A stretch of DNA of 14,254 nt from IMG/VR virus record IMGVR_UViG_2721755727_000004. One strand, 5' to 3'. The DNA is from a virus (lineage: Duplodnaviria; Heunggongvirae; Uroviricota; Caudoviricetes). Numbering within the stretch: position 1 is the first letter of the stretch; every line of letters begins with the position of its first letter. The notes under the pieces were generated by a model. It was not told where the DNA came from. It saw only the letters and a list, made by a program, of their open reading frames with translations, and ran no database searches. The translations under genes were made by a program, and so were the position numbers. This document shows positions 8,789 through 13,270 of the stretch, in pieces.

Positions 8789-9127
8789 CTATTTCCCTGA
8801 ATTTACGACGAAACTGTTCGAGCGGGCTGAAGCATTCATGCTCATAACCTTCGCGGAGGTAGATAACCCGTTGTGTTTCCGGCTCCCAACGAATGACTCT
8901 GACGGGCACTCCGTAGTGATCTTTGAACCAGCGGTTAACTTGTCGCAAAGGACTGTCTCCTTCTGCCGGTTGAAATCACCCACAGCCCACTCTGCAAAGC
9001 TGTGGGTTACAATTTCCCTGTCACCTGGTACATTCACTGCATAGCAATATTCCACCTTCGCTTTTCCACCCGGTACAGGAAGCGCAATCAGTTGCGAGCG
9101 ACGGTAGTGTGTTGTTAAACTGTTCAT
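8789..9127 (-). CDS. ymfM: Early-operon protein; candidate SOS-inducible cell-division inhibitor
   Basis: 112-aa ORF; start overlaps the ymfL stop (ATGA). Confidence 0.65.
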
Positions 9128-9693
9128 GCGTTAGTTTCTCCACAACCAGAAGCAATCGACGCCACGACGCCCGGAGCTGCACACTCGCGGGCGTCATTAC
9201 TTTCTGAAATGCAAAAAATTTTGTAGACAAGTGCTGCATGCTCCTGCAGCTTCGAAATTGAGAGATACAGCTCGTCGTTAATTGCTGTCTTCTCATGCGG
9301 TTCCACTACACCGTCTTCGATTGCTGAACGAATCTGTTTTGAATAACTGCCGATCTGTTCAATGACTTCCAGCAGACGCTGGTTAATATCGGCGTTGTCC
9401 ACATCCTCGACGTCAGGAAGAGACACAAAGACGCCATTTGCAGACTGCGCCACAGCATCAGCAATGAAGTGAGTGCCACCAGCACGCTGTAAAACCATTG
9501 CCCATCCCAGCGGGAAAATCTGATCGCCATCTGCACGAAGGCGGTTGAATAAAGCGTTTTCTGTTACATCGAGCCAGTCAGCCGCTTCAGCGTAACCACT
9601 CGGCAACGCCGCGATAGTTTTTCTGACAGCTTTCACGTACCACTCAGGCTGTTTTTCTATTTTCCAGTGATGCTTACCCACGATTAGCCTCAT
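9124..9693 (-). CDS. ymfL: Early-operon regulatory protein (CII-like position)
   Basis: 189-aa ORF immediately downstream of croE in the rightward early operon. Confidence 0.65.
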
Positions 9694-9724
9694 CGTTCTG
9701 TGGTTAAAAATTGAAAGTGTTCTG

Positions 9725-9925
9725 CTAATCTTTCGGATAGATATCCGGTCTTAAGTCAGATTTCGTAATTGCACCTGATGTGTATTGCTCAAGTTTTTTA
9801 GCCAGCACAAAACTGGCTTTTTTATAGCCATTGAAAACCAGCCGTAAGTAGCCAGGTGTTGAGCCAACTTTTCCGGCCAACTCGCCCTGCTGTTCTTTGG
9901 TTAAAGAGTCCCAATACGCTTTCAT
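9725..9925 (-). CDS. croE: Cro-like repressor
   Basis: 66 aa (MKAYWDSLTKEQQGELAGKVGSTPGYLRLVFNGYKK...) with HTH; divergent from the CI-like gene across an operator region; GGAGG RBS. Confidence 0.75.
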   Translation of the reverse strand: MKAYWDSLTKEQQGELAGKVGSTPGYLRLVFNGYKKASFVLAKKLEQYTSGAITKSDLRPDIYPKD

Positions 9926-9928
9926 ACA

Positions 9929-9951
9929 ATATGTACCTCCGGTGTACATAT
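9929..9951. promoter_or_regulatory. Operator palindrome ATATGTAC-N7-GTACATAT (OR-like site)
   Basis: Perfect 8-bp inverted repeat with 7-bp spacer between the croE start and cohE. Confidence 0.6.
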
Positions 9952-9979
9952 TACATGATTGAAATGAACCTTCAAGATA

Positions 9980-10000
9980 CTTGTACCTTAACGGTACAAG
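9980..10000. promoter_or_regulatory. Operator palindrome CTTGTACC-TTAAC-GGTACAAG (OR-like site)
   Basis: Perfect 8-bp inverted repeat, 16 bp upstream of the cohE ATG. Confidence 0.6.
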
Positions 10001-10015
10001 GGTTTTAATTTCGTT

Positions 10016-10690
10016 ATGAAAACAATCCATGACATCCGGCGGTCTAACGCCAGAAAACTGAGAGATGGTGTTGGCGGGAATTCTTCCTTTGCCACTATGA
10101 TTGATCGCGAGCCAACCCAGACCAGCAGGTTTATGGGAGATGGTGCTACTAAAAATATCGGTGACAGCATGGCACGACACATCGAAAAATGTTTCGACCT
10201 GCCTGTAGGATGGCTCGATCAAGAACACCAGACAACGAACATCACAAAAAAACCTGATGTTTCAATCACTAATAAACAAATCACATTAGTCCCTGTCATA
10301 TCATGGGTACAGGCCGGAGCATGGAAAGAAGTTGGATATTCTGAGGTTGATTTGAGCACAGCAGAAACGTATCCCTGCCCTGTACCCTGTGGGGAAATGA
10401 CTTATATCTTGCGGGTAATAGGTGATTCAATGATTGATGAGTACCGCCCGGGAGACATGATTTTTGTCGATCCTGAAGTACCTGCCTGCCACGGTGACGA
10501 CGTTATTGCATTGATGCACGATACAGGTGAAACCACCTTCAAAAGGTTGATAGAAGATGGGACACAGCGTTATCTCAAAGCGTTAAACCCAAACTGGCCT
10601 GAGCCTTACATTAAGATCAACGGTAATTGCTCTATAATTGGTACTGTGATTTTCTCAGGAAAACCAAGAAGATACAAAATCAAAGCCTAA
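10016..10690 (+). CDS. cohE: CI-like prophage repressor with LexA-type S24 autopeptidase domain
   Basis: 224 aa; N-terminal HTH, C-terminal S24 peptidase with GDSM serine motif (VIGDSMIDEY) and catalytic lysine region. Confidence 0.9.
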   Translation: MKTIHDIRRSNARKLRDGVGGNSSFATMIDREPTQTSRFMGDGATKNIGDSMARHIEKCFDLPVGWLDQEHQTTNITKKPDVSITNKQITLVPVISWVQAGAWKEVGYSEVDLSTAETYPCPVPCGEMTYILRVIGDSMIDEYRPGDMIFVDPEVPACHGDDVIALMHDTGETTFKRLIEDGTQRYLKALNPNWPEPYIKINGNCSIIGTVIFSGKPRRYKIKA

Positions 10691-10702
10691 TCAATGTTTA
10701 TG

Positions 10703-10725
10703 AACCTGCTTCGGCAGGTTTTTTT
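10703..10725 (+). terminator. Intrinsic terminator after cohE
   Basis: AACCTGC-ttcg-GCAGGTT followed by a T7 run, 13 bp after the stop. Confidence 0.85.
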
Positions 10726-10729
10726 ATAC

Positions 10730-10763
10730 TTGACAATGTACCTTTGAGATACATAATGTACCC
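10730..10763 (+). promoter_or_regulatory. Near-consensus sigma70 promoter with two AATGTACC operator half-site repeats (pL-like) upstream of ymfJ
   Basis: TTGACA (10730-10735), 16-17 bp spacer, CATAAT (10752-10757); AATGTACC at 10735-10742 and 10755-10762. Confidence 0.6.
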
Positions 10764-10864
10764 AAGAGAAACAACAAACAGGCAGGACGCCCACGAAGTA
10801 GCCCGCCCGGTACGTACGAAGACCGGGATGATTCGTTAGCGGATGATTTCAGTGGAGAGAATAG

Positions 10865-11173
10865 ATGAATGAGCAGAATTTGAAGCATGTGATCGCATTG
10901 TTGCTGGAAGACGCTAAACGTTTGCAGCAGATAGAGCCAAATGCAGGCACTGAGGCCCGCATTTTGTTAGCAAAACAGGCATTAAAGACTTGCGGGGCGC
11001 AAGCCCCTGGTCGAACCGAGTTCATGAATTTCATGGCTAACACACTCACCCCTCTGCCATGCAATGGAGAGAAGGTGAGCCGTGTTTATCACGACACAAT
11101 GGTTAAGGCTTTAAGAATCGAGCTTGATGGGCTTAGGCGTAAGATCGTAATGAACGAAATCGTTACCAACTAA
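10865..11173 (+). CDS. ymfJ: Hypothetical protein, first gene of the leftward (pL-like) operon
   Basis: 102-aa ORF with GGAGAG RBS; unknown function. Confidence 0.6.
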   Translation: MNEQNLKHVIALLLEDAKRLQQIEPNAGTEARILLAKQALKTCGAQAPGRTEFMNFMANTLTPLPCNGEKVSRVYHDTMVKALRIELDGLRRKIVMNEIVTN

Positions 11174-11452
11174 GGAAGCAGACGGAAGTAAGCATGCGCT
11201 TTGTTCAAATTTACAGACAAATATATTTGCGTCAACACCGGCACTGTTAGCAATTGAAAATGTTTGATCAAGGATTTGTTGGCAGTTCATTGTACTTTTG
11301 AGGATATATCCCTCTGGAATCAGTCTGCAGCAGCTATCGTCAGACTCTTTAACTGTTTTCTGGTACAGAAAGTTAAGCATTAATTCTTCAAATTTTTTGG
11401 TCTGTTCGGCTGTGTCTTCAAATAGACGAACGTGAACATAAAACTGGTTCAT
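11111..11452 (-). CDS. ymfI: Hypothetical protein, convergent with and overlapping ymfJ
   Basis: 113 aa from MNQFYVHVRLFEDTAEQ with AAGGAA RBS; the longer track ORF starts at an upstream non-ATG codon. Confidence 0.55.
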   Translation of the reverse strand: MNQFYVHVRLFEDTAEQTKKFEELMLNFLYQKTVKESDDSCCRLIPEGYILKSTMNCQQILDQTFSIANSAGVDANIFVCKFEQSACLLPSASLVGNDFVHYDLTPKPIKLDS

Positions 11453-11708
11453 TAAGTTTCCTTGCTTGCTGGCTGTGTGAGAACTCCAGCATACCACCGA
11501 GCCTGAAGTGGTGAAAAGACAGGCACATAACAGCTAAGTATTTTCAACCAGAGAGAATCCTTAGCGTTGTGGTGAATGCGGCTCAGCGCACGCGGGTTAA
11601 GGTTGAGGCTGACAATCGACCTTCTGTGGATACCCACCCGCCTGGTGTGCAACCTTCGCCAGGCACCGGGGGCACCCGACACCACAACTTTATGCTGTGT
11701 GTAGTCTT

Positions 11709-11754
11709 GGCGGTACCAGTTTTTTCCTTAGTCCTTTCTGGTACCGCCCTTTTT
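11709..11754 (+). terminator. Strong hairpin with T-run (intrinsic terminator or attenuator) upstream of xis-int
   Basis: GGCGGTACCAG (11709-11719) and CTGGTACCGCC (11738-11748), perfect 11-bp stem, then CTTTTT. Confidence 0.65.
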
Positions 11755-11916
11755 ACAAAACAGAGAAGAGTATCCCCGGATGACGGGTTAATAACCCGAC
11801 CCATCCTGATAGCTGTGGCCACAGGTGCTCTTCTCTGTTTTGTGGAGAAACTAACCGACCGTGCAGGGTCGATATGCTGAGACTAAGCAGTTAGTGTAGT
11901 AATAAGGTGATCGCAT

Positions 11917-12162
11917 ATGCTTCAAATGTTAACTCTTGAAGAATGGGCTGCTGAAAAATACAGAAGTAATCCTCCAAGTGTGTCCACATTGCGTCGTTAT
12001 GCTAAGCAGAATTTATTTTGTCCACCGGCCATGAAACAAGGCCGGTTATGGCGAGTGCGTGAGGACGCCGAGTTAGTTGGGGAGTTGGTAACACCTGTAA
12101 TCAAGAAAAATGACTCATTACTTTTGCAACGGATTTTGAGTAATGGCAGCCAGACCGCGTAA
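11917..12162 (+). CDS. xisE: Excisionase
   Basis: 81-aa ORF directly upstream of and overlapping the integrase gene; AAGGTGA RBS. Confidence 0.8.
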   Translation: MLQMLTLEEWAAEKYRSNPPSVSTLRRYAKQNLFCPPAMKQGRLWRVREDAELVGELVTPVIKKNDSLLLQRILSNGSQTA

Positions 12163-13270
12163 GAATAATGTTTCAGTCCCTAACTTATATCCGCTTTATA
12201 GTAGGAAGGTAAATAAAGTCTATTGGCGGTATAAGCATCCAGTGACAGGAAAATTCCATGCTTTGGGAACAAACGAAGCTGAAGCTATCGCTATTGCCAC
12301 TGAGGCCAACACTCGCCTGGCTGAACAAAGAACCCGGCAGATTCTGGCTATCAGTGACAGGATCGCAACCAGCAAAGGAAAGGCTATCACAACGTCAACC
12401 TGGTTAGATCGCTATCAAGCGATCCAGGATGACAGGCTTAAAAGTGGTGATATAAGACTCAACACCTATAAACAAAAAGCTAAACCAGTATCCTTGCTCA
12501 GAGAACGAGCAGGAATGAAGTTGATCTCAGCCGTTGATGTCAGAGATATAGCACAATTGCTTGATGAGTATATCGCCGCTGGGCGGCCAAGAATGGCACA
12601 AGTAGTTCGCTCCGTCCTGATTGATGTTTTCAAAGAGGCGCAGCACTACGGAGAAGTACCTCCTGGCTATAACCCAGCATTAGCCACTAAACAACCAAGA
12701 AGAAAAATTACCCGACAACGGCTGAGCCTTGAAGAATGGAAAAAAATCTTCGATATCGCAGACGCTACTCATCGTTACATGGGAAATGCCATGCTGTTAG
12801 CGCTGGTTACTGGTCAGCGGTTAGGTGATATTTCGCGTATGAAATTTAGCGATATTTGGGATGATCATCTTCATGTCATTCAGGAAAAGACCGGGAGCAA
12901 AATCGCAATTCCTCTTTCTCTTCGCCTCAATGCGATTAACTGGAGTTTACGCGATGTAGTAGCCCGCTGCCGTGACTATGCAGTCAGTGCATACTTAGTG
13001 CATTTTTTTCGTTCAACTTCACAAGCAGAGCGCGGAGCGCAGGTTAAAGCCAATACATTGACGATGAATTTTAGTAAAGCGAGAGATTTAGCAAGAATTG
13101 ACTGGGGAGAGGGTTCACCTGCGACATTCCATGAGCAAAGGTCTTTATCTGAACGTCTGTATAAAGAACAGGGGTTAGACACACAAAAACTACTTGGTCA
13201 TAAAACACAACAACAAACCGATCGTTATCATGATGATCGAGGTAAAGGATGGAGCAAAGTAGCGTTGTGA
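12143..13270 (+). CDS. intE: Tyrosine-type site-specific integrase
   Basis: 375-aa ORF; C-terminal catalytic region (LLGHKTQQQTDRYHDD); overlaps xis by 20 bp. Confidence 0.9.
   Translation: MAARPRKNNVSVPNLYPLYSRKVNKVYWRYKHPVTGKFHALGTNEAEAIAIATEANTRLAEQRTRQILAISDRIATSKGKAITTSTWLDRYQAIQDDRLKSGDIRLNTYKQKAKPVSLLRERAGMKLISAVDVRDIAQLLDEYIAAGRPRMAQVVRSVLIDVFKEAQHYGEVPPGYNPALATKQPRRKITRQRLSLEEWKKIFDIADATHRYMGNAMLLALVTGQRLGDISRMKFSDIWDDHLHVIQEKTGSKIAIPLSLRLNAINWSLRDVVARCRDYAVSAYLVHFFRSTSQAERGAQVKANTLTMNFSKARDLARIDWGEGSPATFHEQRSLSERLYKEQGLDTQKLLGHKTQQQTDRYHDDRGKGWSKVAL

Follow-up and report, generated by a model that had tools for sequence, protein, structure and literature searches.

The closest described arrangement in a classical phage is the tImm-OL/PL region of lambda, in which a terminator comes after the repressor gene, and next a promoter on the same strand that points away from OR. 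There, the promoter is overlapped by operators, 17-bp dyads that the OL and OR regions have in common; the C-terminal domain of the repressor is RecA-sensitive, and the arm runs toward xis-int. The locus described here is alike in each of these traits, and the C-terminal domain of its repressor is homologous to that of lambda. The immunity regions of SfV, SfIV, Ayreon, cdtI, 2H10 and Stx2c carry the same terminator-promoter-operator module, with cI identical to cohE or at 98.7–99.6% identity. In the SfV record, a "putative operator region" is annotated between cro and cI only, and no operators are annotated at the early-left promoter in the records of the SfV/Ayreon group. For e14 itself, the abstract of the analysis by Mehta et al. 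2004 reportedly states that similarity to SfV served to identify the binding sites of the repressor and of Cro; the SfV genome paper is said to be that of Allison et al. 2002. The operator sites between cohE and croE have probably already been published. Our literature search, which lacked these two papers, found none that maps CohE operators at the promoter discussed below.

The window, a stretch of 14,254 nt, is e14, a defective lambdoid prophage of E. coli K-12. Around the promoter, 2 kb that belong to its immunity region and left arm are 100% identical to the e14 region of E. coli K-12 MG1655. In the orientation of the window, the MG1655 annotation gives the genes ymfL (−), ymfT/croE (−), ymfK/cohE (+), ymfJ (+), ymfI (−), ymfH (+), xisE (+) and intE (+). 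Judged by its sequence, e14 is a defective K-12 copy of an immunity region of the SfV/SfIV type, from which it differs in the operator centre and in the genes that follow the leader. We propose, with high confidence, that the promoter downstream of cohE is the CohE-repressed early-left promoter and operator (a pL/OL analogue) of an e14/SfV-type immunity module. The genes and signals around it are the following.

9725–9925, minus strand: croE (ymfT), a Cro-like divergent gene, assigned by sequence identity and annotation.
10016–10690, plus strand: cohE (ymfK), 100% identical to MG1655 ymfK; its product, a repressor of the CI type, is 224 aa long and ends in a self-cleaving S24 domain.
10702–10726, plus strand: intrinsic terminator of the cohE transcript with an 8-bp stem, a UUCG loop and a U-run, recognized by folding and by pairing kept in relatives.
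10730–10735, plus strand: −35 hexamer TTGACA, invariant in 24/24 relatives found via the protein.
10752–10757, plus strand: −10 hexamer CATAAT, separated from the −35 by a 16-bp spacer, invariant in 24/24 relatives.
10764, plus strand: predicted transcript start, an A located 7 nt past the −10, placed by promoter geometry alone.
10865–11173, plus strand: ymfJ, 102 aa, the first open reading frame 3′ of the promoter, with GGAG 8 nt 5′ of the ATG.

The terminator hairpin GAACCTGC-TTCG-GCAGGTTT (as RNA, GAACCTGC-UUCG-GCAGGUUU) lies at 10702–10721 and is followed by a T-run. Its RNA fold has a free energy of −11.6 kcal/mol (z = −4.5), and 0/200 shuffles were as stable. Between relatives the stem sequence varies with the pairing maintained, and the terminator is annotated in the SfV and Ayreon records. 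The promoter begins 40 bp past the cohE stop codon, on the same strand as cohE and pointing away from the divergent cro promoter. It matches the consensus at 11/12 positions and is the top promoter-like site within 9000–12300; the Ayreon record has a software-predicted "promoter" at the equivalent position. A sequence-only reading of this DNA had described a near-consensus promoter right after a strong cohE terminator, and both elements are present where it placed them, with a spacer of 16 bp between TTGACA and CATAAT. No experimental transcript start for ymfJ was found in the literature searched, and the Reg-Seq supplement of PMC12132413 contains nothing on ymfJ.

The same reading had pointed out two more copies of the 8-mer AATGTACC over the spacer and the −10, at 10735–10742 and 10755–10762. 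Both copies are exact and at these coordinates, but the exact 8-mer is absent from the cohE-croE intergenic region, which carries TATGTACC and CTTGTACC instead. Three exact copies of AATGTACC occur in the window against 0.47 expected. The third, at 9027–9034 on the minus strand, was considered as an operator and discarded; it lies in coding sequence, no dyad partner accompanies it, and it appears to be a chance occurrence. What matters is not a direct repeat of the 8-mer but a dyad of 17 bp, TGTACC-N5-GGTACA, and the copies at the promoter are the left ends of two such dyads. Scanning the 14-kb window for the pattern TGTACNNNNNNNGTACA with at most one mismatch yielded three sites versus 0.33 expected, two of them in the cohE-croE region and one identical with the site called OL1 below. 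With the 12-position dyad TGTACCNNNNNGGTACA and at most two mismatches, five sites were obtained versus 0.48 expected, a number reached by 0/200 shuffles: two in the cohE-croE region, two on the promoter and one inside cohE. The site inside cohE (10381–10397, plus strand; TGTACCCTGTGGGGAAA) has two mismatches and is probably there by chance. The candidate operators, to which no strand is assigned, are:

9932–9948: ORa, TGTACCTCCGGTGTACA, matching 11/12 dyad positions, over the croE start region and Shine-Dalgarno sequence.
9965–9981: ORb, a weak site, TGAACCTTCAAGATACT, matching 9/12 dyad positions, over the putative −35 of the croE promoter.
9982–9998: ORc, a perfect dyad (12/12), TGTACCTTAACGGTACA, over the putative −35 of a leaderless cohE promoter.
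10737–10753: OL1, candidate operator, TGTACCTTTGAGATACA, matching 11/12 dyad positions and spanning −27 to −11.
10757–10773: OL2, candidate operator, TGTACCCAAGAGAAACA, matching 10/12 dyad positions and spanning −7 to +10.

The centers of OL1 and OL2 are 20 bp apart, about two helical turns, and ORb shares 79% identity with OL1 over 19 nt. On the repressor side, cohE is without a Shine-Dalgarno sequence, and the stretch 9981–10018 (plus strand) contains TTGTAC (9981–9986), a 17-bp spacer and TTTAAT (10004–10009). This spacing would start transcription on the A of the cohE ATG, which suggests a leaderless repressor mRNA like that of lambda cI from PRM. The perfect dyad ORc overlies the −35 of this suggested promoter; the promoter assignment beneath ORc is a putative one.

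We then compared the module across relatives in two ways. The first set was ascertained by protein and comprises 24 loci found via CohE homology (73–100% identity), including the phages SfIV, SfV, Ayreon, cdtI, Stx2c, yong2 and EPP-1 as well as 16 genomes from other Enterobacterales genera. CohE is identical or 98.7–99.6% identical in the active temperate phages SfIV, SfV, Ayreon, PhiR29, PhiR49, 2H10, cdtI and Stx2c. Homologs with 74–80% identity are found in Hafnia phage yong2 and Edwardsiella phage EPP-1, and the 16 genomes from other genera encode homologs with 73–88% identity. In 24/24 loci a terminator comes after the repressor gene, and TTGACA-(A/G)-TGTACC-N5-G(G/A)TACATAATGTA comes next. 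Neither the −35 and −10 nor the two half-sites differ between any of these loci; the five bases of the operator center, the bases 5′ of the −35 and everything past about +10 are variable. A dimer-binding operator would be expected to leave such a footprint. The OL1 dyad is perfect in 13 of the 24 loci and has one mismatch in the remaining 11, e14 among them. The left half of OL2 is kept in all 24 relatives, and its right half is weak, with two mismatches in 13/24 and at least three in 10/24. The cohE-croE region has three sites at fixed positions in 24/24 loci.

The second set was ascertained by the promoter, through a pattern scan of viral contigs joined with the loci already collected, and comprises 147 promoter copies. 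A CohE homolog (70–100% identity) ends 41–81 bp 5′ of the promoter in 145 of these, and the other two copies lie at contig edges; a YmfJ-like gene is located 3′ of the promoter in only 7/147. This linkage argues that the promoter element belongs to the repressor and immunity module and not to ymfJ, which is one among many interchangeable first (cargo) genes. YmfJ belongs to phrog_12693, of unknown function, and a Pfam search with YmfJ gave no match. All relatives sampled share one operator specificity, with the same half-site in every homolog down to 73% identity, so that a co-variation of repressor and operator could not show among them.

These comparisons bear on the possibility that the promoter is real but unregulated or under another regulator, and that the GTAC repeats were kept for reasons of promoter or start-site function or are leftovers of a cohE-croE duplication. 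Promoter constraint may indeed explain part of the pattern. The right half of OL1 shares bases with the −10, and part of its conservation is inseparable from that of the −10; the left half of OL2 abuts the −10. OL2 is moreover a weak dyad, and because its right half has at least two mismatches in 23/24 relatives, the conservation of its left half could stem from another constraint just past the −10. The left half of OL1, by contrast, sits in the spacer; it is invariant in 24/24 loci, and the five nucleotides next to it are free to vary. This half-site is the most telling element because sigma-70 itself constrains the spacer little. The cohE-croE region is filled with the same dyad, the module was never seen without a CohE-type gene other than in the two copies at contig edges, and ymfJ stays off up to a late stage of the SOS response (PMC11002266). 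We therefore regard an unregulated or otherwise regulated promoter as very unlikely.

The earlier proposal of a repressor-controlled pL analogue is thus supported by the lambda-like cI-tImm-OL/PL geometry, by the dyads shared with the cohE-croE region, by the conservation in 24/24 loci and by the linkage to a CohE-type gene. Its corollary, that ymfJ is the first derepressed gene on this arm, follows from the position of ymfJ as the first open reading frame past the promoter in e14. The regulatory evidence for the promoter is comparative or correlative; CohE binding, cooperativity between OL1 and OL2, the start at 10764 and the extent of the transcript are what we infer from it.

The properties of CohE fit this assignment. 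The protein contains a Peptidase_S24 domain (E = 1.5e-26), and its C-terminal domain aligns to that of lambda CI including the context of the catalytic lysine (FKRL versus FKKL in lambda). The cleavage and catalytic residues assigned from the sequence are Ala100-Gly101, Ser138 and Lys176. The S24 domain, the Ala-Gly site and the Ser/Lys pair together suggest, at the level of sequence, that CohE is built for inactivation by RecA-stimulated self-cleavage. In the Keio collection, cohE is essential (PMC5992433).

Published expression data show when the two arms are switched on. In an SOS time course, the log2 fold changes of ymfJ/ymfM were 1.34/1.44, then 4.05/4.00 and then 4.83/4.77 (PMC11002266). 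In these data ymfJ rises late in the response, together with ymfM from the other arm and with intE, and the authors put the late induction down to CI-like repression (PMC11002266). In a dam mutant, ymfJ was the most strongly up-regulated gene, alongside recN and other SOS genes (PMC11741368). A single e14 co-expression module contains ymfJ, ymfH, xisE, intE, ymfT, ymfL and ymfM (PMC10602906; gene list in PMC12132413). By Reg-Seq, a predicted promoter before intE-xisE-ymfH had hardly any activity (PMC12132413), which fits transcription of the left arm from further upstream.

The co-expression module was named the "YmfT iModulon", and YmfT was proposed as an oxidative-stress-responsive regulator (PMC10602906, PMC12132413). 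CroE (YmfT), and not CohE, could accordingly be the main protein on the operator sites. Lambda Cro and CI share operators, so that CroE probably binds the same dyads, and YmfT is the putative regulator named by the iModulon authors (PMC10602906). But croE is itself in the induced set and cannot explain repression in the uninduced lysogen, whereas cohE is the essential gene (PMC5992433) and its product carries the SOS-cleavable domain that explains induction. Binding of CroE would add to control by CohE rather than replace it, and a leading role for CroE seems very unlikely to us. The anatomy described here suggests a simpler reading of the "YmfT iModulon", as a regulon of CohE that SOS induction sets free.

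The least probable alternative, that ymfJ is a direct LexA target, as lists of SOS genes would have it, and that LexA controls the promoter, can appeal to the listing of ymfI and intE under a "potential SOS box" in an SOS review (PMC6590174) and to a perfect CTGT-N8-ACAG core at 11353–11368, but we reject it, since 10690–10865 contains no LexA-box-like site, the core sits within ymfI, some 590 bp past the promoter, and ymfJ is induced at about 50 min with ymfM instead of from 10 min as LexA genes are and falls outside the relation between heterology index and induction level (PMC11002266). The core itself, CTGTTTTCTGGTACAG, is far from any promoter examined, and it may be the "potential SOS box" that put ymfI on SOS gene lists. 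Each of the three alternatives fits the data worse than a CohE-controlled pL/OL.

Under control by CohE, the switch would work as follows. During lysogeny, CohE dimers would occupy OL1 and thereby the spacer and the −10, and a second dimer would bind, probably cooperatively, to the weaker OL2 over the start site. Bound CohE would exclude the sigma-70 RNA polymerase from the near-consensus promoter, and the upstream terminator would end the cohE transcript, so that ymfJ would be spared read-through from the repressor's own promoter. Upon DNA damage, activated RecA would stimulate CohE to cleave itself at Ala100-Gly101 via Ser138 and Lys176, which would free both arms together. One arm, croE-ymfL-ymfM, would be transcribed from the promoter in the cohE-croE region; the other would run from the early-left promoter through ymfJ and then, in a leader-dependent manner, through the downstream region toward xisE-intE.

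The 5′ part of the predicted early-left transcript contains a further conserved element, and a strong hairpin follows on the same strand.

10772–10839, plus strand: conserved 5′ leader element, consisting of GGCAGGACGCCCACGAAGTAGCC, a hairpin (10806–10810 paired with 10823–10827) and GATGATTCG (also given as GAUGAUUCG).
11709–11755, plus strand: 11-bp hairpin with a U-run, a likely terminator, between ymfJ and xisE (−24.2 kcal/mol, z = −6.6).

The leader element is about 65 nt long, begins at about +9 of the predicted transcript and has a 5-bp stem with a loop of about 12 nt. Across the 31 distinct versions that were aligned, 98.1% of cells keep the stem paired, compared to 17–59% in slid controls. 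Compensatory changes occur in four of the five pairs, one pair shows four pair types, and 0/500 shuffles reach the observed score. The e14 leader scores 84 bits against the model R1. The element is present in 88/147 loci of the e14 immunity type, and it lies also just past the early-left promoters of SfII, ST64B, ZF40 and mEp237, which have unrelated repressors and operators. When its core sequence was used for a scan, 170 copies turned up. Of these, 100 follow upstream sequences of non-CohE type, 82 different ones in all, and there the leader starts from a few to about 40 nt past the predicted −10.

An Rfam search with the leader gave no family match. Each locus has a single copy, with no second one on the cro side in the window, in SfV or in SfIV. 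No N-like arginine-rich open reading frame follows the leader; the first open reading frames form about 70 clusters with no consistent gene. A MAFFT alignment shows the leader to be collinear in layout with lambda (pL leader, boxA, boxB), but the covariance model finds no significant match to lambda (pL leader, nutL, nutR). Because the model does not detect lambda, we treat homology to the lambda pL leader and nutL as a lead and not as a finding. An N/nut antitermination leader was rejected as an identity, given the lack of an Rfam match and of a lambda nut hit, the single copy and the lack of an arginine-rich first open reading frame. AgvB-type anti-sRNAs, located at the PR′ moron site, are not relevant as relatives of the leader.

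A functional leader RNA is favored by the covarying hairpin, by the occurrence in more than 80 promoter/operator contexts, by the absence from Rfam and by the layout collinear with lambda. We raise tentatively, as a minority possibility, that the leader is an undescribed cis-acting RNA of early-left operons in N-less lambda-like phages. For SfIV, the absence of N, cII and cIII has been stated by its authors (PMC3851460). The leader could act as a nut- or put-like antiterminator, for example against the hairpin at 11709–11755, or as a processing or stability signal. The strength of this same-strand hairpin would make a role in antitermination or processivity an attractive idea.

The region 11536–11757 (plus strand), which overlaps the annotated ymfH coding sequence (11569–11880), scored 29.2 bits for STnc100 (threshold 47) and 28.5 bits for DicF (threshold 48). 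Both scores are below the Rfam gathering thresholds and mainly the terminator hairpin at 11709–11755, with which the matches end, aligns, so neither sRNA identity was accepted. Instead of encoding a protein, the annotated "ymfH" may represent an RNA or a terminator region.

Other elements were seen past the same promoter in relatives. A second, distinct conserved leader type (…AAATTTGGTTGTAACACGGCGTATGGCACATGCGTCGTTAGCGGTC…) occurs in the first ~150 nt in 37/147 loci, including Ayreon, cdtI and Stx2c, and in SfII it precedes the e14-type leader. Two leader types, in tandem in SfII, make early-left leaders look modular. In Hafnia phage yong2, an apparent tRNA gene (GGTGTAGCTCAGTTGGTAGAGC...) is located in the early-left leader about 200 nt past the promoter, with a long hairpin before it.

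For E. coli K-12, the analysis provides a regulatory map of e14: it proposes TGTACC-N5-GGTACA as the operator consensus, places five candidate sites and assigns two promoters to the control of the repressor. Control by CohE would explain why ymfJ, intE and xisE appear as late SOS genes, why they do not fit the LexA-box rules and why cohE is essential. The same module controls medically relevant active phages: the serotype-converting SfV and SfIV, the cdt-carrying phages and the Stx2c phages. Further work might pay off on the leader RNA; if this is an antiterminator, it could explain how early-left transcription passes terminators in N-less lambda-like phages.

Compared to lambda, the operator sequence of e14 differs (TGTACC-N5-GGTACA), and two operators, the second of them weak, take the place of three in tandem with pairwise cooperativity, which is a trait of lambda and no requirement of the class. 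With rexAB missing from the space between repressor gene and promoter, OL is only ~755 bp away from OR in e14. There is no N gene and no recognizable nutL; variable cargo takes the first position, which in e14 is occupied by ymfJ, and the e14 leader bears a different conserved hairpin. As with putL at HK022 PL and nutL in lambda, a conserved structured RNA comes right after the early-left promoter, independent of the immunity type. Its single 5-bp stem with a 12-nt loop is unlike the pentaloop of lambda boxB, and it seems unlike put, which forms two long stems. With these differences, the arrangement is that of an ordinary lambdoid early-left promoter and operator, belonging to a widespread immunity type.
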